A stretch of DNA of 32,000 nucleotides from positions 123,809-155,808 of the forward strand of contig NZ_WNKU01000006.1 in the NCBI RefSeq assembly GCF_009720735.1, in the 5' to 3' direction. Positions 950-29,883 of this stretch are shown one piece after another. This DNA comes from Heliobacterium mobile. Lineage in GTDB: Bacteria; Bacillota; Desulfitobacteriia; Heliobacteriales; Heliobacteriaceae. The number at the start of each line of letters is the position of its first letter. The stretch's first letter is position 1. The notes below the pieces were generated by a model, which worked only from the letters and a program-made list of their open reading frames with translations, had not been told where the DNA came from and made no database searches. Made by a program: the position numbers and the translations under genes.

Positions 950-1627
950 GTGGAACTACCGGATGAAAGCATACCGGGTTTGATTAAAGTACTCAGTCGC
1001 ATCCTCCCCTGGGAGGTTTCTATCGCCATTGCGGACAAGTCCCAATTTGTCTATTACCAGCCTAGCTCGACCTTGGATCTGAAAATCAAGCCCGGCGATC
1101 CGGTGAAAGAAGGCAGCGTGTCCATGCAAGCGCTCCACGCCGGCGGCCCCATTTCCATGTATATGGAGGAAGATCTCTACGGCGTTCCCTACTTTGCTAT
1201 CAGCACTCCTTTGACCGAAATGGGCATGGAGGACCGCTGTCTGACGGCGATCATTCCACCCTTTTTGGCGAACGAAATCTCCCGGCTTCCCCGGCATAAG
1301 TTCCTCATTGGGAAAGGGGACGAACGGTGGATTCCCATCCCTTTGGAACAGATTATGTACATCGACTCAGAGCATGGAAAAACACGCATCTTTACCGATG
1401 ATGATCAGTACACAAACAAGCACACCCTTTTCGAACTGGAGTGGATGCTTCCTCGGAACCAGTTCGTCCGTTGTCACCGAGCCTATATTATCAATATTGA
1501 TAAGGTAGCTGAAATCCTGCCGGATTTTCATTCCACCTTCCTTCTGGTGATGAAATCAAAACGAAAAATCCAAATCCCTGTCAGCCAGCGTTACGCAAGT
1601 CACTTTCGTCGTTTAATGGGTTTTTGA
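950..1627 (+). CDS. LytTR-domain DNA-binding regulator with unassigned N-terminal domain
   Basis: 225 aa with a GTG start 8 nt after AAGGAAAGGGGA. The C-terminal ~100 aa (IPLEQIMYIDSEHGKTRIFT...FVRCHRAYIINIDKV...IPVSQRY) matches the LytTR pattern. I saw no receiver-domain signature in the first ~120 aa. Confidence 0.75.
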   Translation: MELPDESIPGLIKVLSRILPWEVSIAIADKSQFVYYQPSSTLDLKIKPGDPVKEGSVSMQALHAGGPISMYMEEDLYGVPYFAISTPLTEMGMEDRCLTAIIPPFLANEISRLPRHKFLIGKGDERWIPIPLEQIMYIDSEHGKTRIFTDDDQYTNKHTLFELEWMLPRNQFVRCHRAYIINIDKVAEILPDFHSTFLLVMKSKRKIQIPVSQRYASHFRRLMGF

Positions 1628-4489: not shown

Positions 4490-4888
4490 ATATATCACCT
4501 CCTTTTATCCCCTGTCATAATGTTATTCTGGAACACCATGAAAAAATGCGATGCAAATATATAAAAATTTCCACAAATAATGAATGCCTCACCCTTTATT
4601 CGGGACGCTTGTCGGCATTCTTATATAAGCTGAGTTTCTTTGACGAATCACACAAAGAAAAGGTAGATCTCTAAATCTATTTTTCTATAGGAAATCCATC
4701 TTTCTAAAGGCCCTCTCCCGAACGCGCAATCGTGGCTACGGGTTCTCCTGTAAATAATCTATGCAATAATGGTACATTCTTGCCTATCCTTGTTACCCTT
4801 CTTTGTACTTAAATGCACAATCGATATACTTATCCTATTGATACCATACTGCAAACTAACCCGATCACATGCAAGGGAGGCCCTACTC

Positions 4889-6259
4889 ATGGCCGATGTC
4901 CAAGCATCCCTTCGAATGCCTGCCAGCGCGTCCGATTTGTTTAACTATATCAGCCGTTATATCGGATGTAACCACCAAATCCACTGTATCTTAAAGGTCA
5001 ACGGCCTTGTCGATGTCACCCTGCTGCGAAAAAGTTTGACTTTGGCGATTGAAGCCGAACCTGTCTTGAGATGCCGTTTTGTTGAACAAGATCCCTTTTC
5101 TTTTTGGGAACAATACGACGATATAGACTCCATAGAACTCTGCTCACTCGTCGAGACCGACCAGACAGAAGCCGAACTGCATCGCTTTGTAAATGCACCA
5201 GTAGATTCCTATCGGGATCCACAAATACAGATCCGCATCCTGCGTTCCGGTCCTTCGGACCTCCTCTGTTTTAAGATCGACCACGCTTGTAGTGATGCAG
5301 GAGGTCTTAAAGCTTGCGTCTCTCTTATCGCTTCCATGTACAACCGCCTATGCATAGATCCTGCTTACAAGCTCGAACATAAAAAAGTGGGGAATCGCGA
5401 TCAGAGTCAGCTCTTTCCCCATCTGAATATTTCCGACGTAAAAGAAGCTTGGGAGCGTCAACCTAACCGTTCACGGTCGACCATCCTATCGTTTCCATTT
5501 CGTTCTGATGACAACGTCACTCCCGAGTTTGTCACTACCCCTTTCGACCCTATACATTTTCACAAACTACGCCGCTATGCTCATCAAAAAGGTGTTACCC
5601 TCAACGATATTCTTCTGACGGCACTATACCGAACCTTGTTTGCCACGACAGATCCTCCGGCGGGGAGGCTGATACCACTGCAAGTGACCGTTGACCTCCG
5701 CCAGTTTCTTCCTATAAAGCAAGCCGACGCGATTTGTAATCTCTCCGGTATCATCACCCCGATGATAGAGCGAGTCTCCGGAGAGTCCTTTTCAGATACC
5801 TTGATGAAAGTGTCGACGATGATGCAGGAACTGAAACGATTTGCACCGGGAATTCGAAGCGTCCTGCTGAGCGAAATCTATGGCAGACTCGGTTTTAGGG
5901 AATATTACGATTGGCTCATGTCCGGTTGGAATCGCTCCGTAGAGACGAAGTCGTACCCGCCGATTTTTTCGAATATCGGCAAGATCAGCGATGGGAAAAT
6001 TCACTTTGGTGCGTTGGAAGTGACCGACGGGTACATGATTGGGCCGGCATTGTGCACTCCCGGATCTTTGATCGCAGCCAGTACCTACCAAGACCGCTTA
6101 ACGCTGGCGATGGCTTTTTATGAGCCCGCCATTTCTAGAAATAGGGTCGCTCAATTTTTTGACTCTATGATTCGGGAAATCTACCTTGCCATTGGTGCCC
6201 AACCTGCACAAGTTCCCGTACGCAAAAGCGTTATCGCTTACAACTTATCGGCTTATTGA
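4889..6259 (+). CDS. condensation-domain-like (HxxxD) acyltransferase
   Basis: AAGGGAGG (4873-4880) precedes ATG 4889. The KIDHACSDAGG motif fits the HHxxxDG/HxxxD active site of NRPS C-domain, PapA and WS/DGAT-type acyltransferases, and the ~456-aa size is appropriate. Confidence 0.65.
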   Translation: MADVQASLRMPASASDLFNYISRYIGCNHQIHCILKVNGLVDVTLLRKSLTLAIEAEPVLRCRFVEQDPFSFWEQYDDIDSIELCSLVETDQTEAELHRFVNAPVDSYRDPQIQIRILRSGPSDLLCFKIDHACSDAGGLKACVSLIASMYNRLCIDPAYKLEHKKVGNRDQSQLFPHLNISDVKEAWERQPNRSRSTILSFPFRSDDNVTPEFVTTPFDPIHFHKLRRYAHQKGVTLNDILLTALYRTLFATTDPPAGRLIPLQVTVDLRQFLPIKQADAICNLSGIITPMIERVSGESFSDTLMKVSTMMQELKRFAPGIRSVLLSEIYGRLGFREYYDWLMSGWNRSVETKSYPPIFSNIGKISDGKIHFGALEVTDGYMIGPALCTPGSLIAASTYQDRLTLAMAFYEPAISRNRVAQFFDSMIREIYLAIGAQPAQVPVRKSVIAYNLSAY

Positions 6260-6270
6260 TACTTGCAAAG

Positions 6271-6300
6271 AAACCATGGCCACATGCGGGCCATGGTTTT
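6271..6300 (+). terminator. intrinsic terminator of the acyltransferase gene
   Basis: aaccatggcc / ggccatggtt forms a 10-bp stem with a 7-nt loop, followed by tttt. Confidence 0.8.
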
Positions 6301-6323
6301 ATGTTACTTAGATTTAAAATAGT

Positions 6324-6360
6324 AAAACCCCCACTGCCCGCTCTGGGTAATAGGGGTTTC
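6324..6360 (-). terminator. possible terminator of the 6419-6691 gene
   Basis: aaacccc / ggggttt forms a stem with a large loop. On the minus strand it is followed by T-rich actattttaaatc. Confidence 0.4.
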
Positions 6361-6418
6361 GTTGAACCATTTTTATAACAGGACGGTCTAAACGACTATG
6401 TGGGTTTACAGGAACATA

Positions 6419-6691
6419 CTAGACCTCACCAGACATGCACGAAAATCGTATATTCTTGGGCATCCAAACTTCATACTTATTTTTCGCCTTGCATCTAGGG
6501 CAGACACAGATCATCTCGGCTAAGGCATGGGTTTCATCAGTGACATAGTGGGTGCTGCCAATGTAGATGAGATCGATAGGCTCCGTATTCGGCATCGTAT
6601 CGTTATAACTCTTCCCATTTACGAGTAACTCGAAACGACCACGACAAGCCCGACAAGTCAGAATCACCGGTTTTTGGCTGCTAATAATCAC
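6419..6691 (-). CDS. small zinc-ribbon protein, hypothetical
   Basis: Two CxxC pairs (CRACRG ... CPRCKAK). AAGAGGAGGA abuts the track GTG at 6700, so the second in-frame GTG at 6691, 9 nt downstream of the RBS, is the more plausible start. Confidence 0.6.
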   Translation of the reverse strand: MIISSQKPVILTCRACRGRFELLVNGKSYNDTMPNTEPIDLIYIGSTHYVTDETHALAEMICVCPRCKAKNKYEVWMPKNIRFSCMSGEV

Positions 6692-6899
6692 AAGAACCAC
6701 TCCTCCTCTTTAGCTACCTATGTACTACGTGTAATGACAATGACGCTTTTTAAAGCGAAAAGCGACCATCTCGTAGTCATCGACTAACAAAATGGCCGCT
6801 CTGCCATGCTATCCCTCTAATCACAATACCTTGTACTACTTCTCTTTATAAAATGATCATACACTGATTTTATAATCAATGTCAATCAGTTGAGCAATT

Positions 6900-7088
6900 T
6901 TACTTTCGCTTTCGGGAAAAGTGAGTCTCTGCCCAACCAAATTCCATTGCGGCACATTCTTCATCACAGTTGCCATAGAATATTTTTTTCGTCTCCCGCT
7001 TTTCGCTCCGCTCAAGGTCCGCATGCAATGCAGCTAGCGATTTTGCCAACTTATTTACGGCTTCATTCAGGCTGGACAAAATCCTCAC
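6900..7088 (-). CDS. possible small helical protein, hypothetical
   Basis: 62-aa ORF with a helical, charged N-terminal half (LNEAVNKLAKSLAALHADLERSEKRE). It has a GTG start with poor RBS spacing and lies in an A+T-rich spacer. Confidence 0.25.
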   Translation of the reverse strand: MRILSSLNEAVNKLAKSLAALHADLERSEKRETKKIFYGNCDEECAAMEFGWAETHFSRKRK

Positions 7089-7328
7089 CCCTTTCTTTCA
7101 ATGTGCAAAGTATAATCATTTATATGACAAAACATCAAGTCCCAACTTGCTATTCCCTTGTATAACAGCACTACTAACCTTGCACATGCTGGCTGGTTAG
7201 CTTTTGACATCCAATAGTATGCATATAGAGAAATATATCGTAAAAGTATGTCGAAAAAACAGGAAATTTTTGAGTTAGATCGAACATTCGAAATATAGGA
7301 AAAGACTTTGCAAAGGAGGACACCCCCT

Positions 7329-8480
7329 TTGAAAAAAGAGCATTTATATTTCCAGGACAAAGAATGCGGACATCCAAATCATCTCCGTCGCACCAGAGGT
7401 TTAGTGATCACCTACCAGTGCAACCTCGACTGTCTCTATTGTTATGTGTCGAACAAGTCTGATAAACAAATGCCTTTAGACGTAGCCAAACAAGCGATTG
7501 CAGACAGCTTTGTAGACAGATCGGGGAATTCCTTTCAAGAAGTGGAGATTGACTTTTTAGGCGCTGAACCCTTATGTGCTTTTGATAAGATAAAAGAGAT
7601 CGCCCACTGGATGTGGAACCAGCCATGGCCGAAACCCTATATCCTCTTTGCCACAACCAATGGAACCCTGCTCAATGAGGAAATGAAAGACTGGTTTCGT
7701 ACCCACCGAGAACGGTTTGTCCTCGGACTCAGCTACGATGGAGACGAAGAGACCCAAAACGTAAACCGCTCTGATTCATCCACACAAATCGATCTCGACT
7801 TTTTCCAAAAAAACTGGCCCCAACAACCGATTAAAATGACCATTTCCGAAAAAACCGTCCATCGGCTTGCCGATGGAATTATTTTTCTGCAAGAAAAAGG
7901 TTTTAATATTCACGCCAACCCAGCGAACGGCACAAATCCCTGGAGTGAGGCAAGTATCGCTGAATATAGCCGGCAGTTGGCCAAACTCATCGATTACTAC
8001 CTAGACCATCCCGAAGTACCTCCTGTTTCCTTGTTGGATGTGGACTTGAAAACACTCTTGACTTCCCGATCGAGTTTTGAGAACAAGTACTGCGGTGCCG
8101 GGGTCGCTTTTGACGTCGTCGATGTGGACGGCAAAGAATACCCCTGCCATCTCTTTTCACCGTTAGTCTTGTCGAAATCGAAAATCTATGCCTTGCGGTC
8201 ACTCAACTTCCATGCCAAAGAACCCTTCATCGATCCAAAATGCAAGAACTGTGTCTTAGAAAACATTTGCCCCACCTGTTATGGCATGAATTATCGTTCC
8301 ACATCCAATCCGGCACTGCGAGAAGTGACCTTATGCAAATTATATATGTTGCAAATCCTCGCCAATTGTAAGTTACAAGCAAAAATGTTGGCAAGAAAAC
8401 AAAGCTTGTCCGCGGAGGATAAAGAGATCGCTTACGTGATTCAAACCATCTATCAGTTACTGAACAAAAAAACAATGTAA
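7329..8480 (+). CDS. radical SAM / SPASM-domain peptide-modifying enzyme
   Basis: The CNLDCLYC cluster (CxxxCxxC, about 7419-7442) lies within ~30 residues of the start. The C-terminal region fits the SPASM pattern: CGAGVAFDVVDVDGKEYPC (C-x12-G-x4-C), then CKNCVLENICPTC, then a later Cys. AAAGGAGGA (7312-7320) precedes in-frame TTG 7329; the track start is TTG 7308. Confidence 0.85.
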   Translation: MKKEHLYFQDKECGHPNHLRRTRGLVITYQCNLDCLYCYVSNKSDKQMPLDVAKQAIADSFVDRSGNSFQEVEIDFLGAEPLCAFDKIKEIAHWMWNQPWPKPYILFATTNGTLLNEEMKDWFRTHRERFVLGLSYDGDEETQNVNRSDSSTQIDLDFFQKNWPQQPIKMTISEKTVHRLADGIIFLQEKGFNIHANPANGTNPWSEASIAEYSRQLAKLIDYYLDHPEVPPVSLLDVDLKTLLTSRSSFENKYCGAGVAFDVVDVDGKEYPCHLFSPLVLSKSKIYALRSLNFHAKEPFIDPKCKNCVLENICPTCYGMNYRSTSNPALREVTLCKLYMLQILANCKLQAKMLARKQSLSAEDKEIAYVIQTIYQLLNKKTM

Positions 8481-8495
8481 AAGAGGGGATCGTTG

Positions 8496-8750
8496 ATGAT
8501 AGAAAAGTCCGATATCCTTAAAGAATCTTTAGAGTTGGGCCATGAAGGAGCCGATGTGAAGCCCGATGCCCTTGAGCCCTTATCCCTGTCAAAAGAAGAG
8601 TTGGCCAACATCAAGGAGATCGCCGGAGAACATACCCCCCAAATCCATGAAACCCATTCGATCTCTTTTGGTTGCTCCTGTGGCGGAAGCTGTTACCTCG
8701 TCTGCCGCAACAGTTGTGCCTCAGCATGCTTATCCTCATACAGTCACTGA
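8496..8750 (+). CDS. Cys-rich candidate RiPP precursor peptide (SCIFF/ranthipeptide-like core)
   Basis: 84 aa, starting 16 nt after the maturase stop, with AAGAGGGGA as RBS. The leader is acidic and about 57 aa long. The C-terminal core is GCSCGGSCYLVCRNSCASACLSSYSH, with six Cys spaced C-x-C-x3-C-x3-C-x3-C-x3-C (8673-8729). Confidence 0.7.
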   Translation: MIEKSDILKESLELGHEGADVKPDALEPLSLSKEELANIKEIAGEHTPQIHETHSISFGCSCGGSCYLVCRNSCASACLSSYSH

Positions 8751-8768
8751 AGAAAGCGGGGAATCGAC

Positions 8769-10544
8769 GTGGCCAAATACATCCGTTATATCGGCATCGA
8801 TTTCGGTACAAACAACACCGTACTATGCTGGCGATTGTACAATACAGAAACCAAAGAATGGGGACAAATCCATACCTTGAATGAAGGCACCTCCTCTACC
8901 ATCCCGTCCTTAATCTATGTCTCCGGAAATGGTGAACCTCTCTTCGGCGAAAAAGTGGCCTCTCGGATCAGTTACTACAAAAGTATGGGGGACAAGGGGA
9001 CCTTATATAACCGCTTCAAGATGGACATCCCCAGTGAAGACGAGAAAAAGCGGAAAGCCGCCTTCGATGCATCCGTAACTTTTTTGAAGTATCTTTACGA
9101 TCGTTATAAACAGCAACCGATCGATGCTCTTCCCAAAGAGGTAAAACCGTCCGATATTGAAGAGCAAACCTATGTGAGTTACCCCACCCGTTGGCCTCAG
9201 TTTGCCCGGCGCCTTACGGAAGAGGCAGTGTCAGCGGCTGGATTCAAAAATGTCAATATCGATCATAAATGTACCGAAGAGCCTTATGCAGCCTTTCGGT
9301 ATCTCCTGTTGCATTCGAATGAACAAGTCTCTCAGCTTGAAGCGAAAGGCATCCTCATCCATGGAAGACCGGTCTTTGTGCTCGTGGTCGATATGGGGGC
9401 AGGCACGACGGACGTGTCCTTAATTCGATTCGTACCGGGAGACGCCGAGGATAAGCGAAACGAAGTCCTGTTAAACTACCCATCGCCATCGAATGATGCT
9501 GAAGCCAAAAAATGGACCTTCGGCGGTGGCGATATCGACAACGCCTTAATGGATTTGTTGAAAAACTTCCTCGTCAGCGACGCCAAAGAAGTGTTGAGCT
9601 CCTACGCGGAATGGTCGGAGGAACCTGTAGACAAGCTTTTGCAAGATCTGCTCTACCCTTTGAACATTCGAAGTTGGAAAGAAGAGAGCGTCAACTCGGT
9701 CCTGTCCGACAACAAAACCTGCACCACCTTCCCCAGCTCGTTTCATGGAATGCTAGCCAAAAAACTCCCTCCCTTGCGCCTTGACCGCACGACCTATGCC
9801 AAATACTGCGGCGATGGAATGAACCGCTTTTGCCATATCGTCAACGGTGCCGTCCAAAAAGCCATGGAACTCAAGCAGATCCCCAATGCCGAAGCCATCG
9901 ATCTCGTCGTATTGACCGGCGGTCATAGCAAGAGTTGGTTTGTTCGCGATTTGCTTTGTGGCAAAACCCTCCCGGGCACATCGACGACGATCGAACTGCC
10001 GAAGATCAAAAGAGAGCCAAACCGGATCATGCAGTGGAAGATCCCAGAGGAAACCGTCGCCCGTGGCCTTTGCACCTTATTGGAGTCGAAACCTTTTCGC
10101 CACCGCCTCACCCATTCCGTTTGGATTCGGGTCCAAGAAAAGTATTATGAACAATTCAAAGTGTCCAACTGCTCTGGCTGGAAGTGCCTCATCGATCACC
10201 GGGCAAGCGATATCATCCTTCCCGTGAAAAAGACAGCAACCCTCAATTTCACCGTCGAAAATCATCCCAAATACGATAACCTGCACTTTAATGTGGAGGT
10301 AGCCGTTGGCGAAACCCTCGATGAAGCCGTGAAAAAATCTTACCTCGCCGTCGTAGACCAATCGGTCGTGGCCAACCTCGTTGTCGACGTCATGTTACTA
10401 GGTACACGATGGTTGACGGATATCAGCGCCGACTACAGGATGGACAATACGATTCTGATCAAAGAAGACCTGTCCATCGACTGGAATTATGAACTGTCAG
10501 GCTATGGCGAACATGGCAATGGGAAAATCGAGTTGAAACCCTAA
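8769..10544 (+). CDS. non-canonical Hsp70/actin-fold ATPase (DnaK-like NBD plus beta-sandwich, no helical lid)
   Basis: IGIDFGTNNT (phosphate-1), VLVVDMGAGTTDVSL (phosphate-2) and DLVVLTGGHSKS (adenosine motif) are in Hsp70 order. The C-terminal beta-rich ~170 aa resembles SBD-beta. The GTG start lies 7 codons before IGIDFGT. Confidence 0.8.
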   Translation: MAKYIRYIGIDFGTNNTVLCWRLYNTETKEWGQIHTLNEGTSSTIPSLIYVSGNGEPLFGEKVASRISYYKSMGDKGTLYNRFKMDIPSEDEKKRKAAFDASVTFLKYLYDRYKQQPIDALPKEVKPSDIEEQTYVSYPTRWPQFARRLTEEAVSAAGFKNVNIDHKCTEEPYAAFRYLLLHSNEQVSQLEAKGILIHGRPVFVLVVDMGAGTTDVSLIRFVPGDAEDKRNEVLLNYPSPSNDAEAKKWTFGGGDIDNALMDLLKNFLVSDAKEVLSSYAEWSEEPVDKLLQDLLYPLNIRSWKEESVNSVLSDNKTCTTFPSSFHGMLAKKLPPLRLDRTTYAKYCGDGMNRFCHIVNGAVQKAMELKQIPNAEAIDLVVLTGGHSKSWFVRDLLCGKTLPGTSTTIELPKIKREPNRIMQWKIPEETVARGLCTLLESKPFRHRLTHSVWIRVQEKYYEQFKVSNCSGWKCLIDHRASDIILPVKKTATLNFTVENHPKYDNLHFNVEVAVGETLDEAVKKSYLAVVDQSVVANLVVDVMLLGTRWLTDISADYRMDNTILIKEDLSIDWNYELSGYGEHGNGKIELKP

Positions 10545-10568
10545 TGTGCAGATGGGCGGTGAACGATA

Positions 10569-13154
10569 GTGAAAATTTCAAAGCAAAGCAGTCAAGAGTT
10601 CAAAAAGCTGAGCCGGCCGATTGAAAAAAACTATGAACTACATATCCTTCCGGAAGAATCACAATGGAAAAACATCGTCAACTATGTGCTTGAACGGGCC
10701 TATTTGCAAGAACTCTCGTCGACAGAACAGTTTCCCGACGAAGCTGCCTTTGAGCAGAACCGGCAATTTTCTTGGATGCAAATCATTCGCATCCCTACAT
10801 CCCCTTCTGACGCACCCCATCCGTCCATTCAAGCACAATGGCAAAGTGTACTCAGTGCCTGCCACTGCTGGGGGAGCCGCTTTGTCTTTTTGCTGATTCG
10901 TCTGCAGGGAAAAACCTACCTTTGTCTAGGAAGCTGCAACTTAACAGGCAAGCTTTCCACCGAAGACGCGATACAGCAGCTCTGCCAAGCCGTTACCAGC
11001 CAGTTGGCAGGTTGTGAGATCAAGAAAATGAGCGAAGCAGAAGTCTATCGTACGATCGTAAGGCCGCTCGGCCGTTTCCCTGTTTTAGGCTGCGTTACTG
11101 GGATTCCATCCAAACGAAAAAATGTCTATGATTCTGATTTTGTTCAAACCTTAGATAAAGTTGCCTTCGGCCTGCGGGAACAAGATTTCGAAACGGACTA
11201 CGCCGTCGCCATAATCGCCGACCCGGTAAACGACGCGGAAATTGCCGAGATCATCGCCAACTATCGCGATTTTAGTTCCTCCGTCCATCAATGGGTCAAG
11301 CGAACGTCCACGACCAGCCAAGGCCAAGCCAAAGGGGAAAGCGTCAATGTCGGCGCATCGATCGGCTCCGGTAATCTCATTCCCGTCGATGTCAATGCCA
11401 GCGTAGGCTATGCCCGCTACAACGTCGATATCAACTCCCAATCGGTGGGCACCGAACTGGTCGATAAGATGGCCAAATATACAGAAGAACTAGTCGATAA
11501 ACACATTCAGCGGTTGCAGCAAGGCCGTAATCTCGGTTTCTGGAATGTGAGCGTCCATGTTCATGGCAACGACTACGCCACTACCCAAACCATCCTTGGG
11601 CTGCTCCGTTCCATATACTCCGGCGATGAATCCTATATTGAACCGATTCGGTTACACATCCTCCCCCCCGGCACAGGAGCGGCCACCTATGCCAAAGCAT
11701 TCAGCCATATTCCCCTGTCGAGCACGTTAAATCGACCCAAAAGCTCCTCCTGGGAAAATCCGCTCGGCCGCATCCTCGGCATGGCTTCCACCCCGATGAA
11801 TACAGAAGAACTGTCCATCGCCTCCAGCCTTCCACGCAAAGACGTTCCGGGCCTTCGCTTCGTCCGCAATGCCGTACGTTTTGCCACCAATCCGCCCATG
11901 CTCAAAGATAAAAACGCACCAACCATGAAGCTCGGCCGGATTATGGACACAGGCATCCGCCTATCGAGCCAATATACCTTCAACATCCATTCACTCACAC
12001 GGCATGCCTTTGTCACCGGCATCACCGGCAGCGGGAAATCGACTACCTGCCAGCAGATCCTCCGCGAAGTCGTCACATCGACAGAGGCACCCGTGTTCAT
12101 TCTCGAACCGGCGAAAGAGGAATATGTCAAGTGGGCACATGAAATGAATGAATCGTTGCCTCCGGAAAAGCAATTTTTCATTTATATGCCCGGAAACTTC
12201 GTCGATTCCAACCATTATAAAAAACTGCGGCTCAACCCTTTTGCCCCTGCCGTGGAAAAAGGGGCGACTGCCGATCATTATGGTCGCTGCGAACGACTAT
12301 CGACGATCTTCTCCACCAGTCTACCCATGGATGGAATTCTCCCTTACATTTTTGAAGAAGCCCTTTTTGAAACGATGCGGATCGCCTTAGCCGATGAAAG
12401 GTGCCCCGACCACGGCGTATGCCCCAGCTTACAGGAATATCCCACCCTTGAGGAAGTTCGAGAGATTGCCCTTTGCTTGCTTGCCACGCGAGGATATACG
12501 AGCGATTTTACAGACCAGTTGAAAGCAGCCATCACGACGCGGATTAACGCACTACAGCGGGGCTTTAAAAAAGACCTCTTCGGCTGCACAGCATCGACGC
12601 CCCCGACCGAACTCTTTGGCCGAAATGTGGTCATCAATTTGAGTCGACTCGCCAATGAAAAAGATCGGGCTTTGGTCATGTCTTTATTGTTAACGAACCT
12701 GTTTGAATACAGAAATGCGAAATATCAGCATGATTCGGCCTATCGCAGTAAAGCGAATGAAGGTGAATTATGTCATCTAGCGGTCATTGAAGAAGCCCAC
12801 AGGATTCTGAGAAATCCCCAGATGGATTTCAATAATACCGGAAATCCCCAGTCGGCCTTAGCCTCTCTTTTCAGCGAAATGTTGACGGAAATGCGCAGTT
12901 ATGGGCAAGGCGTGATGGTCGTCGACCAAGTCCCGTCCGATCTCATTCCGAACGTCATGAAAAATACCAATTTAAAAATCGTCCATCGCTTAGTTTCCCG
13001 CGACGACTGTGAAGCGGTAACCGCATCGATGAGCCTCAAAGAAGAACAAAAGGATATCATTGGCCTTCTGCCGATCGGCGAAGCCATCGTCTGCGGTGCT
13101 TTCGATGATGCAGCGGCCTGGGTGGAAGTAGATGGCGGGGGGACAAGACGATGA
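10569..13154 (+). CDS. FtsK/HerA-superfamily (DUF87-like) P-loop NTPase with large unassigned N-terminal region
   Basis: 861 aa. Walker A is GITGSGKST (about 12019-12045). Walker B is LAVIEEAH (about 12776-12800), followed by VVDQVPSDL and KIVHRL. The preceding MNTEELSIASSLPRKDVPGL segment is typical of HerA/VirB4-like ATPases. I could not assign the first ~480 aa. Confidence 0.75.
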   Translation: MKISKQSSQEFKKLSRPIEKNYELHILPEESQWKNIVNYVLERAYLQELSSTEQFPDEAAFEQNRQFSWMQIIRIPTSPSDAPHPSIQAQWQSVLSACHCWGSRFVFLLIRLQGKTYLCLGSCNLTGKLSTEDAIQQLCQAVTSQLAGCEIKKMSEAEVYRTIVRPLGRFPVLGCVTGIPSKRKNVYDSDFVQTLDKVAFGLREQDFETDYAVAIIADPVNDAEIAEIIANYRDFSSSVHQWVKRTSTTSQGQAKGESVNVGASIGSGNLIPVDVNASVGYARYNVDINSQSVGTELVDKMAKYTEELVDKHIQRLQQGRNLGFWNVSVHVHGNDYATTQTILGLLRSIYSGDESYIEPIRLHILPPGTGAATYAKAFSHIPLSSTLNRPKSSSWENPLGRILGMASTPMNTEELSIASSLPRKDVPGLRFVRNAVRFATNPPMLKDKNAPTMKLGRIMDTGIRLSSQYTFNIHSLTRHAFVTGITGSGKSTTCQQILREVVTSTEAPVFILEPAKEEYVKWAHEMNESLPPEKQFFIYMPGNFVDSNHYKKLRLNPFAPAVEKGATADHYGRCERLSTIFSTSLPMDGILPYIFEEALFETMRIALADERCPDHGVCPSLQEYPTLEEVREIALCLLATRGYTSDFTDQLKAAITTRINALQRGFKKDLFGCTASTPPTELFGRNVVINLSRLANEKDRALVMSLLLTNLFEYRNAKYQHDSAYRSKANEGELCHLAVIEEAHRILRNPQMDFNNTGNPQSALASLFSEMLTEMRSYGQGVMVVDQVPSDLIPNVMKNTNLKIVHRLVSRDDCEAVTASMSLKEEQKDIIGLLPIGEAIVCGAFDDAAAWVEVDGGGTRR

Positions 13155-13783
13155 AAAGTGGACGCGAGAAAAAGCCCTCCCTTCTTTCATCATGGTGGGA
13201 TAAGGTGACAACTAAAAAAACCTTCGTTGACGAAACGGTGATGGAAGAATCGGAAGACGCTCCATCGGAAGAACTTGATACCCCGGTTTGCCAAGCTAGC
13301 GAAGCCGAAGATACAAATCCGCTCATGTCCGCCCAAGAAGAATTCCAAGCACGTCTGAGCGATTTTCGCGACTGTTACGAACAGTTATATCGGGGGGTAC
13401 AAGGAGAAGAGGAACTCCTTCGCAATGCGATCGTCGAATGGTCCTATCGGATCGATAAAGAAAAATCTGGTCCCCTATCTCGATACTGGAATCAACTGGT
13501 TCAATCAGAAGGACTCGGCAGCGAACCGAACAAGTGGAATCAGTCCCCTCTGTTTATGCTGCAAAGGCTCGGCGAAACATGGTTAGCCCTCATACAAGAA
13601 TGGGGCGTCCGAAGAGATTCGATCGAAAATCCTGCTCCCTTTTCGATCGACTTGCTCGATAAGTACAGCTTTTTGGGAACGGCTGAACCCAACCAGCCCG
13701 TGTATGTACTCCGTTACGCCTGGTTATTTGGGGACAGGATTATTGAAAAAGGGGAACTGTCAAGAAAAAATCAATCCTTTTGA
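13151..13783 (+). CDS. acidic hypothetical protein, translationally coupled to the NTPase
   Basis: 210 aa. Its ATG overlaps the upstream TGA (ATGA at 13151-13154). It has an acidic, low-complexity N-terminus and no motif I recognise. Confidence 0.65.
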   Translation: MKSGREKKPSLLSSWWDKVTTKKTFVDETVMEESEDAPSEELDTPVCQASEAEDTNPLMSAQEEFQARLSDFRDCYEQLYRGVQGEEELLRNAIVEWSYRIDKEKSGPLSRYWNQLVQSEGLGSEPNKWNQSPLFMLQRLGETWLALIQEWGVRRDSIENPAPFSIDLLDKYSFLGTAEPNQPVYVLRYAWLFGDRIIEKGELSRKNQSF

Positions 13784-13792
13784 TACGGAAGT

Positions 13793-13838
13793 AAAAAAAA
13801 CCCCGTACGACTCCAATGAGGCGGCGGGGGATTTCTCT
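13793..13838. terminator. weak bidirectional terminator candidate between convergent genes
   Basis: An A8 run, then a ccccg ... cgggg 5-bp stem with a ~19-nt loop, then atttctctt. The structure is poor. Confidence 0.3.
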
Positions 13839-13881
13839 TCATAAACGTTTCGCTAGGGTAAAACTGTACGAATCGTCATTT

Positions 13882-15264
13882 TCAACTGTTCTTATCCAAA
13901 AAATCAGACAGGATTTCCTTTACCAGTTGATAGTTTTCTCTTCCTGCTTGATATTCGCAAGAAGATCCCGTCATGTGATTTGCCTCAAAGTTCGGTCTAT
14001 TATTATTAGTTAGGATCTGACCCTTTGCAACCATTAATTGATAAGATGATGGAATGATAAAATCATGAGCGTACGCTTTGACATTGAGTTCGCCAATTCC
14101 GTTCTGGTACTGATTAATCCTATCGGCAATCAACGGGTTAGAAATAGGCTGGCTTATCTTCTCATCCATGATCCGCTGATTAATGATTTTCTCGGCTTTG
14201 TCGTAATCGATATCAATGGACATGTTTGCTCGACTTTTTGCTAAATAAGAAAGGTTAGAGAAATCCGGTTCCGCAGGAGGAAGTGAATTCAAAGCTCGAT
14301 TTAACTGATACTTAAATACGTCATGAATCACCATCGCCGCTTGCGGATGAAGTATATCTCGCAGGCTGTTATTTGTCGATAGAATCGCTCTTTGTTTTAT
14401 ATCCACCGGTTGATTGACACATGAAAGAACAGACAGGCCTTCGTTTAACCGTAGAATGTTAAGATCAAAAAAAGCTGTCTTCGGATCGCCTAACAATCCT
14501 CCCAGCCAATCTAACCAGTTATCAAGCATTGCAATCAGTTCTTTTGCATAATCAGGGCATAGATTTTGAAGGGTGTTTCGAATATGTTTTAGCGTGGCAT
14601 ACACCCATTCAAACAAATCGCCTTGTGGTCTTTTTTCATGATTAGATAGTTCCTCCGCTTCCCCGAATAGTTTAATGCTTATGCAGGACAAAAGCTCAAA
14701 CAACGCTTCGGCAATATTTTCTCGATTATTCGGGTTGGCAAGAGGAGAGCCAAAGAGCGGACTGGAAATAGTGATAACAGCATCGATGACCCGTTTCTTC
14801 TTCTCCTTATTGAAAACATATTGATCGAGATAGGCCAGATATTTCGCCACCAATCCTCCTTGGCTGTAACCGACCAGTATGTTCGGAGCTGTTTTTTCAA
14901 GAATATCATAATACCCTATGAACTTGTCCGTCGCCATATAGCATCCGGTTTCCTTTTGGCTTCTTCCGTCCCAGTAATACTTGTAGTCCGGTTGTCCTTG
15001 TTTAGCGTAGAACGATTGAATCGCTTTTAACTCAGGGTATGCAGCCCCTTCTTCAAATCTTGCGCCGACACACTTGGCAATATCCGGGACAAAGTATTCC
15101 GGGCCAGGCATTAGATTATATTTGTTATCGTCGACTGGTTGCTTGTTGAAAGAAGTTCTTTCCCCAAGCGTTAATCTGTTGCCAAATGTACGATTAAAAT
15201 CTTCTACATTGGCTCCAATAATATCGGCGGCTTTGTTTAAACACCAGAGGGTTGTCTTGTTCAT
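13882..15264 (-). CDS. alpha/beta-hydrolase fold lipase/esterase
   Basis: GAAAGGAGAG lies 6 nt upstream of ATG 15264; the track GTG at 15282 overlaps the RBS. It has the nucleophile elbow LVGYSQGG (GxSxG). The gene is visibly more A+T-rich than its neighbours and is monocistronic. Confidence 0.7.
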   Translation of the reverse strand: MNKTTLWCLNKAADIIGANVEDFNRTFGNRLTLGERTSFNKQPVDDNKYNLMPGPEYFVPDIAKCVGARFEEGAAYPELKAIQSFYAKQGQPDYKYYWDGRSQKETGCYMATDKFIGYYDILEKTAPNILVGYSQGGLVAKYLAYLDQYVFNKEKKKRVIDAVITISSPLFGSPLANPNNRENIAEALFELLSCISIKLFGEAEELSNHEKRPQGDLFEWVYATLKHIRNTLQNLCPDYAKELIAMLDNWLDWLGGLLGDPKTAFFDLNILRLNEGLSVLSCVNQPVDIKQRAILSTNNSLRDILHPQAAMVIHDVFKYQLNRALNSLPPAEPDFSNLSYLAKSRANMSIDIDYDKAEKIINQRIMDEKISQPISNPLIADRINQYQNGIGELNVKAYAHDFIIPSSYQLMVAKGQILTNNNRPNFEANHMTGSSCEYQAGRENYQLVKEILSDFLDKNS

Positions 15265-15600
15265 GTTTTCCTCTCCTTTCACATCTGCCTAACATTGCTT
15301 TCCTCGATCTACATCCTTCCGTCATCTATTTGCCTTATTTGCCTTTTTGAAAAATGACAGTGTTCAAATCCCCCCTAGCTAAAACATATGGATTTTCAAG
15401 GATTGCATTCGCACTTGTTATGTCTAGTCTGCGAACGCTCTAACTATTCCTATCTTTTCCACACTATTTCTTTCTTCTCCTCCCTGTTTCAGTATATAGT
15501 TGAATAATTCATTCGTTATCTTTCGTTTAAAGCAAAGTCCCTATACCTGGAATTGGTCAACAGTGAAGCAACGTTCGAACCAAAAGAAATAGTCCCCCAT

Positions 15601-17103: not shown

Positions 17104-17697
17104 TTAACCCCCAAAATGCCTAACTCGAAATTCGACGCCGATTTGCTGTGCCAACTCCCGACAAGCTTCGATGTCTTTCACAGATATGACATCGACGACG
17201 GATAACACAACACGAGGAATGTGCTTTTTGCATTTGGCCGCAAAGTCCAAAACCGCTGGGAAGGCTTTTTCTCCATAAACCGGTTTGCATAACTCTTGGT
17301 ACTCTTTCGCGTTTTTTGCGTTTAAACTGATAGATATGATGTCTATCCATCCTTCTAATAAGGGCGTTATGTCCGATTTAAAAATCAGGATTCCGTGACC
17401 GTTTGTGTTGACTCGGATCGGGAGGTTATATCTTTCTTTGAGTTTCTTAGATATCTCAATAAGATCATACAGGCGAATCGTCGGTTCACCATACCCACAA
17501 AATACGATTTCACGGCATTGGGAGAGATCTCTTTTCTCGATGTCATCGAGAACTTCTTTCACAGTCGGTTCCCGCTCCAGCCATAGGTTGTATTCACCTA
17601 GACCAGCCGGGCTGTTTCGAACGCAAAAGTTACAATCACAAGTACAGCGGTTAGTTATATTCAGATATAAGGAGTTATCGATTGTATATGTAATCAC
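17104..17697 (-). CDS. minimal radical SAM protein (resembles the TatD-associated small rSAM family)
   Basis: 197 aa with a GTG start. It has NITNRCTCDCNFC (CxxxCxxC) at residues 16-24 and FCGYGEPT. There are no auxiliary domains. Confidence 0.7.
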   Translation of the reverse strand: MITYTIDNSLYLNITNRCTCDCNFCVRNSPAGLGEYNLWLEREPTVKEVLDDIEKRDLSQCREIVFCGYGEPTIRLYDLIEISKKLKERYNLPIRVNTNGHGILIFKSDITPLLEGWIDIISISLNAKNAKEYQELCKPVYGEKAFPAVLDFAAKCKKHIPRVVLSVVDVISVKDIEACRELAQQIGVEFRVRHFGG

Positions 17698-18689: not shown

Positions 18690-20465
18690 TTACGCCCGGC
18701 GGACTTGTAGAGGCCGAGCCCGGTGCAGGTGAACCCAGTCACCGTTTTCAGCCAAGGCTTCTTTCCCTAGTTCTAGGACGAGTCCTTGAGCCGCTGAATA
18801 ATCGGAGGCGACTAGACAACGGCTCATTTCTGTGGCGGCCCGCTGAAAGATTTCACTCATTACCTCGTACTGCTTGGACTGATCTGAGAGTGCTGATTTT
18901 TCCGCGTAGCCCTCAAATGTAGCCGCGATGGCCGGAGTAAACCCCATGAATACGATCAGCAAGTGATGTAGATCGACTCCAAAGGCATGTTTGAAGTCTT
19001 CATATAAGTGATGCATATAGGGGTCGAGTGCAACAACGATGACCGATAAAGCGAGGCCGCCTACAAAAAAAATCTCAATCCACCGATCGAACCCTTCCAA
19101 TTTATGACGATCCCGCTTTGACGCTTTTTCAAAGAAATTGCATTGGTTCTGGATCCAATGGGTATTCAGTAATTCAAGTAATTTTCTCTCTTTCGATGTA
19201 GAAAGGGCATCCCTCTCCATCGTCATCTGCTGGTTGCCATCAGCGCACCCGGCAGCAATGTTGGCGAATCGAATGGCATTTCGAAGCCAAAGCAGTTCGT
19301 TTCGCTGTTTTCGAAGGTAGTGGTCAGCCACTTCATTGTCTAAACCTGCCAGATGCCAGAAAAACTGAATCCGCAATCCCTCCGCGAGGGCACGATAATC
19401 CAGATGTTTGTTCTGGTAGTTTTTCGAGTTAGCCCGACGGTAGATAAGATAGGCGATAAAAAGTGTGAGTGGGTATAGTCCCAGCATAAGCCGGGATTCC
19501 AGGAACATATGAGCATACAACTCAAAAAATAAAACGGCGGCTAAACCAAGAGCGAACAACTGTCCAATGGCACTACGGCGAATATCAGCAAAATGGATAG
19601 CCATCATATCGGATAAGGCGTAGTGATCTAACAATGATCGTGCCCTATCGGTTAGGACACTCTCCTCTTTGCCAGGCCAGAGCCATTCGCGACTTTGGCA
19701 GATGGCTTCGCTTTTTTTGGGGATTAGTTCTACGGCATCTGCGTTATACGCCTCGATCTGTTCAAATATCCGTCGTTCCGAATTCGCCGACGCTGCTCCT
19801 TTCTTCCCATCGCCGGGAAAAAGAGTAACCAACTGAAAAGGCTTCCCTTTAGGGGTTGGATTGCTATCCCGAGGCGTAACGATGTGGTACACCATCCCTG
19901 TATCAATAGGATCGAGCAAGTTCCGTGGAGGGGCATATGGCTCACCGATGCCTTGGCACTTGAACCGGACGACATGAGCGGATCCTCCGATGCGTCCGTT
20001 ATCTACACCATCCCAAAGAGCGATCAAGATATGGCTATGGCGAACGATGTAGGCCCCAATACGGGCGTAGCGTAGCGCGTCACTGTTCGGCTCGCCTTCC
20101 CTAACAGATAAAGGAATAGAAACAACTCTGTCCGCTTTTTTGACCAGTTCCAGATACTCGGCCCGTGACGACTCCGTGTCCGTTTCGGTAACATTGGCTT
20201 CCCCCTCTTCTAAAAGGGGGACTATTAATCGGCATCCGCAATCTAAGGCAACTTGAGCGACTAATCGGTCTGCTCCTTCCGCTAGCGGCGAAAGAAGGAC
20301 AACTGGTGTATGGGGATAGCTCGATCGCAGATCATTAAAGATTTTTCGTACCTGCTCTTCCAGTGACAAACGGTCGCCATTTCGCAGGTCCCGATGACCC
20401 GTCACACCAATAACAATAGGGATCAAAGGTTCGTTCCTGTCGTAAGTGCCCGTTGCTTTAATCAC
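18690..20465 (-). CDS. SLOG-like (YpsA/LOG/DprA-type Rossmannoid) domain fused to four TM helices (SLATT-like 2TM pairs)
   Basis: GAAGGAGG lies 7 nt upstream of GTG 20465; the track start at 20519 has no RBS. The N-terminal motifs are IVIGVTGHRDL, LSPLAEGADRLVAQVAL and ILIALWDG..GGSAHVV. There are two TM hairpins: LFALGLAAVLFFELY with LGLYPLTLFIAYLIY, and IFFVGGLALSVIVVAL with LLIVFMGFTPAIAATF. Confidence 0.6.
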   Translation of the reverse strand: MIKATGTYDRNEPLIPIVIGVTGHRDLRNGDRLSLEEQVRKIFNDLRSSYPHTPVVLLSPLAEGADRLVAQVALDCGCRLIVPLLEEGEANVTETDTESSRAEYLELVKKADRVVSIPLSVREGEPNSDALRYARIGAYIVRHSHILIALWDGVDNGRIGGSAHVVRFKCQGIGEPYAPPRNLLDPIDTGMVYHIVTPRDSNPTPKGKPFQLVTLFPGDGKKGAASANSERRIFEQIEAYNADAVELIPKKSEAICQSREWLWPGKEESVLTDRARSLLDHYALSDMMAIHFADIRRSAIGQLFALGLAAVLFFELYAHMFLESRLMLGLYPLTLFIAYLIYRRANSKNYQNKHLDYRALAEGLRIQFFWHLAGLDNEVADHYLRKQRNELLWLRNAIRFANIAAGCADGNQQMTMERDALSTSKERKLLELLNTHWIQNQCNFFEKASKRDRHKLEGFDRWIEIFFVGGLALSVIVVALDPYMHHLYEDFKHAFGVDLHHLLIVFMGFTPAIAATFEGYAEKSALSDQSKQYEVMSEIFQRAATEMSRCLVASDYSAAQGLVLELGKEALAENGDWVHLHRARPLQVRRA

Positions 20466-20583
20466 TGATTGGCCTCCTTCAGTGAAACATAGGGGTAGTA
20501 CAATATTTATGTACACCATTCTTTATTTCTTTGAACATTCCTTCAAAAGCAAGCCTATTTTTAGCATACTTACCTAAATAGAA

Positions 20584-22833: not shown

Positions 22834-22974
22834 AAGCCCGTTAACGAATAATCAATAACCTCTTCTTTATACATATGTAACTTTATATTTATACCTATAG
22901 GAGGATATTTTTTACTTCCAGCGAATAATTCCTGCAAGATCAAGCTGGAATTTATGAAATTGGAGGGAGCGCCT

Positions 22975-23922
22975 GTGAAACAAAAACAGTTGGTTGGACT
23001 ACGTTCGACTGAGTACGAACACCCCTTTGATCGGAACGCGCTGGAAGCACTAAGAGGAACACCTGGGTTGGAAACGATCGTAAAAAAGTTCAACCATTAT
23101 GGTATCGAAAAACTTTTGAAAATCCGCTATACCGGCAGCAATATTAAGGTAGATGATCGTAACTATCCCGAACTCTATGATACGTTACGGCAAGTCTGCG
23201 CCATTATCGATCTGCCCGAAATACCCGATCTGTACATCCAGTGGGGGTACGAGATCAACGCCTTTACAGCCGGTGTGGAAAAACCGATCATCGTGCTGAA
23301 TTCAAGCTGTATTGATTTTTTGTCCAAAGAAGAGTTGATGTTCATCATCGGCCACGAGGCCGGCCACATCAAGAGCCAGCATGTCCTATACCATCAAATC
23401 GCTGAGGTCTTACCAATTATGGGCGACATCATAGGCAATGCCACTCTTGGCATTGGAAGCCTAATTTCTACCGGTGCCGAGATCGCCTTGTTGAACTGGC
23501 AGCGTATGTCCGAATTTACCGCCGACCGGGCCGGCCTGCTAGCTTGCCAGGATGCCAACATAGCTACCAAAGCCATGGTCAAGCTGGCCGGTGTACCGCA
23601 AAAATATTTCAACTCTATCAATGTTGAGGAATTCATTGCTCAGGCGAAAGAGTTTGAAGGCTATGACTATGATACGCTAGACAAGATCGTCAAGCTGATG
23701 AGCACGATGTGGATGAGCCACCCCTGGACGGTCATGCGCGGCGCCGAGTTTTTCAAGTGGATCGATACGGGCGAGTATGACCGTTTACTCAGTGCTAATC
23801 GGCTAGAAAACCTTATCGGAAACAGTAATGCGAGTGGTACCGGTAAAATGGCCTGCCCGAACTGCGGCGCAACCCTGAAAGGTGTTGAAAAGTTCTGTCC
23901 CTATTGTGGGAATAAGATATAA
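22975..23922 (+). CDS. M48-family zinc metallopeptidase with C-terminal zinc ribbon
   Basis: It has HEAGH (HExxH) and a downstream EFTADR third ligand. The C-terminus is CPNCGATLKGVEKFCPYCGNKI. GGAGGGAG lies 5 nt upstream of in-frame GTG 22975; the track ATG is at 22954. Confidence 0.8.
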   Translation: MKQKQLVGLRSTEYEHPFDRNALEALRGTPGLETIVKKFNHYGIEKLLKIRYTGSNIKVDDRNYPELYDTLRQVCAIIDLPEIPDLYIQWGYEINAFTAGVEKPIIVLNSSCIDFLSKEELMFIIGHEAGHIKSQHVLYHQIAEVLPIMGDIIGNATLGIGSLISTGAEIALLNWQRMSEFTADRAGLLACQDANIATKAMVKLAGVPQKYFNSINVEEFIAQAKEFEGYDYDTLDKIVKLMSTMWMSHPWTVMRGAEFFKWIDTGEYDRLLSANRLENLIGNSNASGTGKMACPNCGATLKGVEKFCPYCGNKI

Positions 23923-23926
23923 AAAT

Positions 23927-23961
23927 AAGCCGGTTGCTTTGTTACTGAAAGCATCCGGCTT
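23927..23961. terminator. terminator hairpin between convergent genes
   Basis: aagccggttgcttt / aaagcatccggctt forms a stem flanked by aaaaat upstream and ttcttc downstream. Confidence 0.55.
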
Positions 23962-24042
23962 TCTTCAGTTGTCGTTCATCGGGAACTTGACCATCTTGTG
24001 GTGCCAAAAACACTATGTATAAGAACGATTTGCTGGTGTAGA

Positions 24043-24501: not shown

Positions 24502-24712
24502 ATTAAATTCCTCCCTATTTGCTGCTATATTTTTATAGTATTTAGAACGCAGCGTACTTCTCAAGACAATCAATAGCAGAGCCAACGTCTTCCGCATAAT
24601 CAACAGCTCTATCATTGACGCGCACAATTATATATCTTTCGTCAAGTCTAGCCTCTACGGTTGATTAATTGCCTCTTGAGTTTTCCCTTCGAATCGAAAT
24701 GTTCTAGTTAGT

Positions 24713-25837: not shown

Positions 25838-25858
25838 GATTCACTCCTCCTTTAAAAC

Positions 25859-29308: not shown

Positions 29309-29340
29309 TTTCCAAGGTTGAAGTAAAGGAGGAAGTGGCA

Positions 29341-29853: not shown

Positions 29854-29883
29854 ACTATCCATATCAGTTATACATAGAAACCA

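Follow-up and report, generated by a model that had tools for sequence, protein, structure and literature searches.

The open reading frame (ORF) at positions 8496-8750 on the forward strand of a 32,000-nucleotide stretch of Heliobacterium mobile DNA (H. mobilis below; contig NZ_WNKU01000006.1, positions 123,809 to 155,808, the whole of which we call the window) probably encodes the substrate of the adjacent radical S-adenosylmethionine (SAM)/SPASM enzyme. The two would form a precursor/maturase pair of the kind that makes peptides that are ribosomally synthesised and post-translationally modified (RiPPs), in this case tied to nucleoside triphosphatase (NTPase) machinery. The ORF begins with ATG, an in-frame TTG lying one codon 5' at 8493, and yields an 84-residue peptide with the C-terminal end GCSCGGSCYLVCRNSCASACLSSYSH. 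It directly follows the 390-residue maturase gene (7308-8480, forward strand), whose stop codon (8478-8480) is separated from the ATG by a 15 nt spacer. The initial annotation had seen a good ribosome-binding site here, and direct reading of the sequence agrees: a Shine-Dalgarno-like AGAGGGG at 8483-8489 stands 6 nt 5' of the ATG, and its counterpart is kept, minus one G, in Heliobacterium chlorum. That annotation also pointed to two overlapping ORFs (8566-8880 and 8672-8884) that might mask the gene; both exist, but they do not mask it, as the NCBI annotation already includes the identical peptide as the hypothetical protein GJ688_07545 / WP_155475934.1, common to H. chlorum.

The coding frame was assessed by comparison with the orthologous H. 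chlorum locus (L001), which is co-linear over the whole operon and whose protein was the sole match in a contig scan with one protein as query. The two precursor ORFs differ at ten nucleotides, and all ten differences are synonymous and at codon position 3, when only 22% of the possible changes are synonymous (P about 2e-7). Read in the overlapping frames the same differences are non-synonymous, 8/8 in ORF 8566-8880 and 1/1 in ORF 8672-8884, so conservation, which the initial annotation had thought might favour an alternative frame, favours that of the precursor. This pattern indicates a genuine gene under strong purifying selection in the 8496-8750 frame. A spurious precursor ORF, with the real gene in either overlapping frame, is practically impossible: both frames are open in H. 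mobilis, but the substitutions rule them out, H. chlorum has a truncated 8672 ORF (60 aa vs 70 aa), both run on into the Hsp70-like gene downstream, and homologues elsewhere match the precursor peptide and never the alternative frames.

The peptide divides into an acidic leader (residues 1-59, 8496-8672), closed by an S-F-G boundary motif, and a core (residues 60-84, CSCGGSCYLVCRNSCASACLSSYSH, which with the stop codon occupies 8673-8750) that ends in a conserved SSYSH tail, all on the forward strand. For composition counts the leader was scored as 58 residues and the core as the remaining 26 (59-84): so scored, the leader holds 13 Asp/Glu against 5 Lys/Arg (pI 4.7) and the core no Asp or Glu at all. 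The long, strongly acidic leader first put at about 57 residues is thus real, and a feature specific to the clade. The six-Cys tail also proves as described, with cysteines at residues 60, 62, 66, 70, 74 and 78 in the spacing C-x-C-x3-C-x3-C-x3-C-x3-C, that is, four consecutive CX3 units (Cys 62, 66, 70, 74 and 78) after one C-x-C. Six cysteines in 26 residues are unremarkable alone, since 80 of 200 shuffled windows hold such a number within 26 open codons in some frame; the Cx1-3C(x3C)3 ladder, however, occurs once in the window and in none of the 200 shuffles. Within the leader, the element LSLSKEELANIKEI (residues 29-42, 8580-8621) is a candidate recognition helix and the sole segment that can be aligned across relatives. 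Searches with the 84-residue peptide gave little: hidden Markov model (HMM) comparison by hmmscan matched no NCBIfam family at E <= 0.1, so that neither the SCIFF model nor any other precursor model recognised it when this proposed check was made, Pfam gave no match, a k-mer search returned only the peptide itself, and exhaustive phmmer with this single query found two true relatives (P0152 and P0153) and a spurious repeat protein (P0154). Single-sequence searches find so few relatives because the leader diverges too fast.

By its motifs and predicted fold the maturase is a complete SPASM radical-SAM enzyme. A CX3CX2C motif at residues 38-45 and seven SPASM cysteines (262, 280, 312, 315, 321, 324 and 343) are invariant in an alignment of 30 homologues, and the AlphaFold2 (AF2) model (mean predicted local distance difference test, pLDDT, 88.4) has as its best matches in the PDB CteB (E 2e-16), anSME and ChlB, followed by TigE and SuiB. 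Residues 1-19 are disordered in this model and the SAM motif begins at residue 38, so that there is no room for a RiPP recognition element (RRE) at the N-terminus, and none is found. Of the NCBIfam models PapB (NF047865) scores highest, at 131 bits against a cut-off of 340, ahead of the CXXX-repeat maturase (TIGR04115; 106.8 bits, cut-off 350) and then the nif11-like, CcpM and SCIFF maturases, the last (TIGR03974) at 70.6 bits against 425 and over residues 31-160 only; no cut-off is approached, and cyclophane-forming SPASM enzymes are also among the matches. Ten relatives of the enzyme score 117-156 bits with the PapB model, and its identity to an annotated TIGR04115 member of Anaerococcus prevotii is 25.5%. 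The family comprises 1,193 proteins at E <= 1e-10 and no curated model covers it; we read the enzyme as belonging to an uncharacterised clade, sister to PapB (the freyrasin maturase) and the CXXX-repeat target maturases. Only distant relatives were found in a plasmid search, and a scan of viral contigs gave just two, 37-38% identical and accompanied by ordinary Cys-rich peptides, without NTPases. Within the maturase coding region the terminator scan flagged on both strands a perfect 8-bp GC-rich hairpin (TCCATCGG-CTTG-CCGATGGA, 7858-7877) with T-runs on both strands, which is probably incidental; promoter and terminator scans were otherwise uninformative, their counts being near those of shuffles, and an Rfam search of 6000-15000 gave no match.

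The pairing of enzyme and peptide is conserved. We scored as a precursor any co-oriented ORF whose final 35 residues include at least four cysteines. Among 49 loci with maturase homologues (identity down to 31%), about 37 carried one, roughly 20 of them downstream and 15 upstream of the maturase. Homologous small ORFs, which the initial annotation had proposed to look for beside orthologous maturases, are therefore present, and this conserved association with a radical-SAM/SPASM enzyme supports its interpretation of the peptide as a precursor. Its remark that the gene, unlike that of SCIFF, follows the maturase is correct as to position, but the arrangement is not unusual: precursors lie on either side of the maturase in this clade, so gene order does not distinguish it. 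A Cys-rich small ORF adjoins homologous enzymes in loci L002, L003, L004, L005/6, L008, L009, L090, L092 and L093, and also in most of 37 metagenome loci examined.

Around maturases 49-57% identical to the window enzyme, the peptides range from 102 aa upwards. They lie upstream of the maturase in L090 (113 aa, C-terminal end EVSFGCSCGGNCHMVCQNSCASACLSSYSH) and L004 (119 aa, NISFTGSSCSDCSGSCWLTCSGSCHSSND), downstream and overlapping the maturase stop codon in L002 (120 aa, DISFGSSETISCSDCSGGCAAYCASLYR) and L003 (111 aa, DISFGSGETISCSDCSGGCGAYCAGLFG), and downstream in L092 (102 aa, PSFGGACTSVACAGSCEGSCSGMCQASCNNRCVSSYTS); stop and start codons of the precursor and maturase genes overlap in L002, L003 and L092. 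The upstream L093 product (at least 201 aa; 2-607 of that locus) differs in that a Peptidase_C39_2-like domain, in place of a free acidic leader, carries an L004-type core, GGSSCSDCSGSCWLTCSGSCKSSNN, at its C-terminus, and could be self-processing; L092 has a related papain-like protein (35% identity) as a separate gene. The core of L090 is near-identical to that of the window, and 25 of 29 residues over ISFG and the core are identical in P0153 (108 aa); in all, the core is near-invariant between lineages although the maturases are only about 57% identical. Its consensus among close relatives is …SFGCSCGGxCxxVCxNSCASACLSxYSH, with [IV]SFG immediately preceding the core in the window, L090, P0153, L002 and L003.

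The leaders, by contrast with the core, cannot be aligned. Those of the close clade are 59-112 residues long with a net charge of -8 to -29, basic residues being scarce or absent, and several are rich in His: P0152 (138 aa) has 17 His and 29 Asp/Glu in its leader, the L002 (9169-9531 of its locus) and L003 (9169-9504) leaders have 10-12 His, and all three are devoid of Lys and Arg. The His/Asp-rich composition suggests metal binding or intrinsic disorder. What the leaders share is an element of the loose form L-x-x-[ST]-x-x-[DE]-[LMI]-x-x-[LIV]-x-x-[LIV], at residues 29-42 of the window peptide, which a strict regular expression finds in six of nine close-clade leaders, the other three holding looser variants. 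Across sub-clades the tail motif C-[GLVR]-S-[SN]-Y-[SAT] is kept (SSYSH, SSYTS, SSYAK, GSNYS), and the more distant sub-clades have classic CXXX repeats in some cases and CxCxxxCGSNYS repeats in others. Peptides of these relatives pass or approach curated models, L023 with 24.1 bits against the TIGR04114 cut-off of 20, L008 with 16.1 against the same model and L092 with 17 bits against TIGR04117. On the sequences compared, a conserved core behind a free leader resembles cofactor-like or housekeeping RiPPs such as SCIFF, and diversifying bacteriocins typically show the reverse; conservation of the core across lineages, behind diverging acidic leaders, points to a fixed cellular target or a structural role.

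Downstream of the precursor, on the same strand, follow three genes. The first encodes an Hsp70-family ATPase of 591 aa (8769-10544) with a nucleotide-binding domain and a beta-rich C-terminal domain and no helical lid; its Pfam HSP70 match is weak (20 bits), and its AF2 model (pLDDT 82.6) has DnaK and BiP as top Foldseek matches over the whole length (E 1e-21). The second encodes an 861-residue HerA/FtsK-type (DUF87) P-loop ATPase (10569-13154) whose N-terminal region, about 450 aa, is uncharacterised; it has a Walker A motif, GITGSGKS, at residue 484 and matches DUF87 and HerA_C in Pfam, CedD and HerA in NCBIfam, the PADLOC HerA models and HerA chains in the PDB. The third, overlapping the ATPase stop codon by 4 nt, encodes a 210-residue partner protein (13151-13783) that has no match in Pfam, NCBIfam or PADLOC; it is homologous to the 184-aa gene product that follows the DUF87 gene in L094 (BLASTP E 8e-6), and its similarity to the 286-aa gene product of L092 is weak and positional. 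From maturase to partner the intergenic gaps are 15, 18, 24 and -4 nt, and this close spacing argues for one transcript in which the precursor/maturase pair would be expressed together with the Hsp70-like, DUF87 and 210-aa genes. Searches of NCBIfam and Pfam and hydropathy profiles detected no exporter, protease or membrane protein in the H. mobilis operon; hydropathy peaks highest in the Hsp70-like protein, where the signal is ambiguous, and no transmembrane segment in any operon protein is convincing. PADLOC gave only generic similarities to HerA, viperin and mad8 and no system assignment, and the plasmid search found essentially no relatives of the Hsp70-like protein.

The association with NTPases recurs. 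A DUF87 ATPase adjoins the radical-SAM/peptide pair in the window, L001, L092, L013 and L015, and an Hsp70-like gene is confirmed beside the pair in the window, L001, L092 and L015 (in the last with an hhalign probability of 97%), with only a weaker tblastn match in L013. The gene order in L092 is LytTR, papain/C39-like, 169-aa, Hsp70-like, DUF87, 286-aa, radical-SAM and precursor, while L015 and L013, whose maturases are 41% identical and whose peptides are of GSNYS type, have DUF87, MORN-repeat, radical-SAM, precursor and HExxH-peptidase genes. Elsewhere the neighbours are three or four dynamin-like GTPase genes, directly beside the pair in L002, L003, L093 and L035, or a DUF697 membrane protein (L004, L090/91 and L024). 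In sum, DUF87/Hsp70-like, dynamin-like or DUF697 genes accompany the pair in at least ten loci with varied gene orders and maturases 35-57% identical. The Hsp70-like query retrieved 30 homologues, some fused to GTPase, WD40 or TPR/Sel1 domains, and these fusions link the Hsp70-like and GTPase themes found around the pair; P0138, P0145 and P0146 are examples, with MMR_HSR1-type GTPase, WD40 and TPR/Sel1 among the fused domains.

Hsp70-like, DUF87 and small-partner genes stand together in the window, L092 and L094, a small and non-systematic sample, and what accompanies them varies: radical-SAM enzyme and peptide, HExxH peptidase, or papain-like peptidase. The picture these loci suggest is of a conserved ATPase core with variable accessories, the radical-SAM/peptide pair among them. 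In L094 genes for an HExxH peptidase and a 101-aa protein come after the Hsp70-like, DUF87 and 184-aa genes, the peptidase being homologous to that downstream of the precursor in L015, L013 and L016. We considered L094 as a case of effector swap and rejected this, since the peptidase occurs together with the radical-SAM/peptide pair in L013, L015 and L016 and is therefore an additional accessory and not a replacement; its role could be that of a leader peptidase or of a further effector. This SprT-like metallopeptidase (L013:9374-10132, L015:9321-10043, L016:1395-2114, L094:11224-12027, and L095/L096) recurs in Hsp70-like loci with and without the pair, and L094-L096 also have a small partner.

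Both PapB and Tte1186 bind a Cys or SeCys of the substrate at an auxiliary cluster (PMC10177961), and the chemistry of PapB has been described (PMC12373016). By analogy, the maturase would bind the C-terminal core and ligate a substrate Cys thiolate to an auxiliary [4Fe-4S] cluster, and the 5'-deoxyadenosyl radical would take a hydrogen from a residue close by, leaving an acceptor carbon at which a C-S bond would form. Repeated along the Cx3C ladder, up to six times, the reaction would produce a compact stack of small thioether rings. We consider thioether formation somewhat better than an even proposition. The acceptor cannot be an Asp or Glu of the PapB type, because the core has none, and on sequence it would have to be a small residue between the cysteines or within the conserved SSYSH tail. 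Recognition of the leader must proceed by some means other than an RRE, which the enzyme lacks; the L-x-x-[ST]-x-x-E-[LM]-x-x-[LIV] element and the S-F-G boundary are the candidates. SPASM enzymes also carry out Cys-to-formylglycine oxidation, epimerisation and C-C/C-O cross-linking, and that the maturase does one of these in place of joining Cys to carbon, the cross-link in the last case involving the conserved Tyr, is unlikely while still deserving serious attention. The near equality of anSME and CteB as structural matches, the core without Asp/Glu acceptors, the tail motif conserved across sub-clades and the cyclophane-forming enzymes among the HMM matches would all fit such chemistry, but most of the top-scoring models (PapB, CXXX-repeat, nif11-like, CcpM, SCIFF) describe enzymes that mature Cys-rich or thioether peptides, and the substrate feature invariant throughout the family is the Cys ladder and no aromatic residue.

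From gene linkage only, we infer a role of the ATPases for the peptide and, with it, a functional tie between the modified peptide and the NTPase machinery. The ATPases may handle, deploy or translocate the peptide as cargo or client; alternatively they may act as sensor and switch in a conflict system that has the peptide as its effector. A single joint reading, tentative and on balance doubtful, is that the cross-linked peptide is a dedicated effector, client or cargo of undescribed NTPase machines, which take the form either of the Hsp70-like protein with the HerA/FtsK-type ATPase and small adaptor or of the dynamin-like GTPase/DUF697 cluster, and that the long acidic leader, in place of an RRE, couples it to the chaperone-like ATPase. 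A conventional exported bacteriocin is unlikely because the operon has no transporter, protease or membrane protein. The wider proposal that the peptide is an ordinary secreted antimicrobial or signalling RiPP, with the Hsp70-like and HerA-like genes as unrelated neighbours, is improbable in our judgement, even with the classic settings of some distant members. In L008 (9264-10052) a 47%-identical maturase has three 61-aa precursor paralogues (CNGGCDGTCAWTCGGTCSGTMQF) in tandem on its downstream side, with an ABC exporter after them, in L009, from Sporomusa, an ABC transporter and ClpP are present, and L005 has an ABC-type ATPase; C39-like peptidase domains occur in L092 and L093, and a LytTR regulator stands directly upstream in L092 and at a distance of about 5.7 kb upstream in the window. 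These have to be set against the missing export functions, the 15-24 nt spacing and 4-nt overlap that favour a single transcript, the recurrence of the NTPase association, and a core that is conserved behind variable leaders, the opposite of diversifying bacteriocins.

Several observations weigh against our overall reading of a thioether-forming precursor/maturase pair tied to NTPases. Translation and modification of the peptide are predicted here from sequence; the peptide is outside all curated families and the enzyme below all cut-offs, so that the chemistry is extrapolated from relatives only 25-30% identical, and the acceptor residues used by the nearest characterised enzyme are missing from the core. 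The other SPASM chemistries, and anSME as second-best structural match, count on the same side. As to the NTPases, L094 has neither radical-SAM enzyme nor peptide, making the ATPase module independent of the peptide, and the more distant maturases of L005, L008 and L009 (43-51% identity) are in ordinary RiPP contexts, showing that the NTPase link is not universal.

A further proposal, that the peptide stays unmodified and is a small acidic protein of metallothionein type that binds metal or Fe-S, or that it is an accessory of the enzyme and not its substrate, would account for the Cys-rich tail and for the His/Asp-rich leaders of the relatives, where P0152 has 17 His and L002 and L003 have 10-12. 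The H. mobilis leader, however, holds only 4 His, the gene is tightly coupled in translation to a homologue of SPASM peptide maturases in dozens of loci, and relatives' peptides match curated models of radical-SAM targets; we regard this proposal as very improbable.

Among known systems PapA/PapB (freyrasin, Paenibacillus polymyxa) provides the best curated HMM match of the maturase. It likewise has a SPASM radical-SAM enzyme whose target is a C-terminal core in which six cysteines recur at regular intervals, and by analogy multiple small thioether rings would be the expected product. The differences are considerable, the maturase scoring 131 bits against the 340-bit cut-off and having its SAM motif from residue 38 and no RRE, whereas PapB has an N-terminal RRE at residues 1-86 (PMC12715619). 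PapB joins Cys to Asp/Glu in CX3D/E motifs (PMC12373016, PMC10739248), and the window core, having no Asp or Glu, has no Cys-X3-Asp/Glu motif; PapA has a short leader, of about 18 residues in its minimal substrate, and the leader here is acidic and 59 residues long. The CXXX-repeat systems (TIGR04114, TIGR04117, TIGR04118, TIGR04115), a family that to our knowledge has not been characterised biochemically, share with the window a Cys at every fourth residue in four consecutive repeats, small residues between the cysteines and an adjacent SPASM maturase of similar length without a large N-terminal domain, and peptides of distant relatives (L023, L092) pass or approach their models. They differ in that the window peptide has no match at E <= 0.1 (the TIGR04114 cut-off being 20 bits), in that its maturase reaches 106.8 of 350 bits with 25.5% identity to the TIGR04115 member, and in that NTPase-linked operons are not part of the family as described.

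The likeness to SCIFF put forward in the initial annotation turns out to be generic. SCIFF and its CteB/Tte1186-type maturases also combine six cysteines in a highly conserved, non-diversifying core with the fold of a SPASM thioether synthase, CteB being the closest solved structure to our enzyme, and the small residues between cysteines are alike. SCIFF peptides are about 45 aa long, and CteB-type maturases carry an N-terminal peptide-binding (RRE) domain. The window peptide, at 84 aa, is about twice as long and matches no precursor model in NCBIfam, and its maturase has no RRE, scores 70.6 of 425 bits in a match confined to the radical-SAM core, scores higher with the PapB and CXXX-repeat models, and has a different gene context. 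Membership of the peptide in the SCIFF family, with maturation by a SCIFF-type thioether synthase, is hardly credible; on the HMM scores we rejected it for peptide and enzyme alike and keep SCIFF as a functional analogy only.

Radical-SAM enzymes with 'peptide-effector' modules in NTPase-centred conflict systems have been described by Kaur, Burroughs, Iyer and Aravind in 2020, as have GTPase systems with HSP70-family proteins (PMC7159879). As in those systems, a radical-SAM gene and a stand-alone small peptide gene lie here inside a chaperone-like NTPase operon, and the window also carries an island rich in TIR domains. Compared by description, however, their modules are vWA-MoxR-FtsH ternary systems, unlike the window operon, and the paper has neither the Hsp70-like plus HerA/DUF87 core nor dynamin-like GTPases, 'Dynamin' occurring 0 times in it and 'HerA' in the reference list only (PMC7159879). 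Our literature search found no description of an Hsp70-like plus HerA/DUF87 set, or of dynamin clusters, with a Cys-rich radical-SAM peptide.

Other genes of the window flank the operon. Upstream are a LytTR-family regulator (950-1627, forward strand), a 496-aa condensation-domain/PapA5-like acyltransferase (4769-6259, forward) and a 93-aa zinc-ribbon-like protein (6419-6700, reverse), the last two kept in H. chlorum, the acyltransferase at 85% identity. We left the acyltransferase out of the system on account of the gap and the opposite-strand gene before the operon. A LytTR gene is the first of the homologous Hsp70-like/DUF87/radical-SAM/peptide cluster in L092 (299-1027), a placement that may point to regulation of the peptide-signal type. 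Convergent with the operon end is a 466-aa alpha/beta-hydrolase (DUF7379/PGAP1-like; 13882-15282, reverse), which was left out because it is missing from the same position in H. chlorum, an indel directly after the 210-aa gene. Farther downstream, all on the reverse strand, are a second radical-SAM protein of 197 aa (17104-17697), conserved in H. chlorum, and a 609-aa ORF without a Pfam match (18690-20519) that adjoins the first gene of the TIR-rich island (20584-28516 and 29335-31901). This island, which looks like a defence or conflict neighbourhood, contains, on the reverse strand, a TIR-PDZ protein (749 aa, 20584-22833), a TIR protein (374 aa, 24713-25837), a TPR protein (218 aa, 25859-26515) and a TIR-TPR protein (661 aa, 26531-28516), together with an M48 peptidase with zinc ribbon (22954-23922), further zinc-ribbon proteins alongside it and a TrkA_N and RyR-domain protein (30021-31901). 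The three TIR-domain genes are 7-15 kb downstream of the operon and fit, weakly, a conflict-gene setting for it.

Cys-rich radical-SAM peptides such as SCIFF and the CXXX-repeat peptides are widespread, and we know of almost none that has an established function. The general type of RiPP pair is familiar; what is new here is a SPASM clade related to the PapB and CXXX-repeat maturases that is RRE-less and has long acidic leaders and a conserved six-Cys core, a family absent by design from RRE-based RiPP censuses. A maturase without an RRE, and a core without the acceptors used by its nearest characterised relative, make it likely that either the cross-link chemistry or the way in which the substrate is recognised is new. 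The recurrent association with NTPases is the most unusual and least understood feature of the system: the link to Hsp70-like and HerA-like ATPases, dynamin-like GTPases and DUF697 proteins suggests a conflict, membrane-stress or translocation setting, and could supply a function for such peptides as well as for these orphan Hsp70 and HerA paralogues of bacteria. If the peptide does serve these NTPases as effector, client or cargo, it would represent a new functional class of RiPP, acting inside the producer or at its membrane in a conflict or stress system and not as an exported antibiotic.

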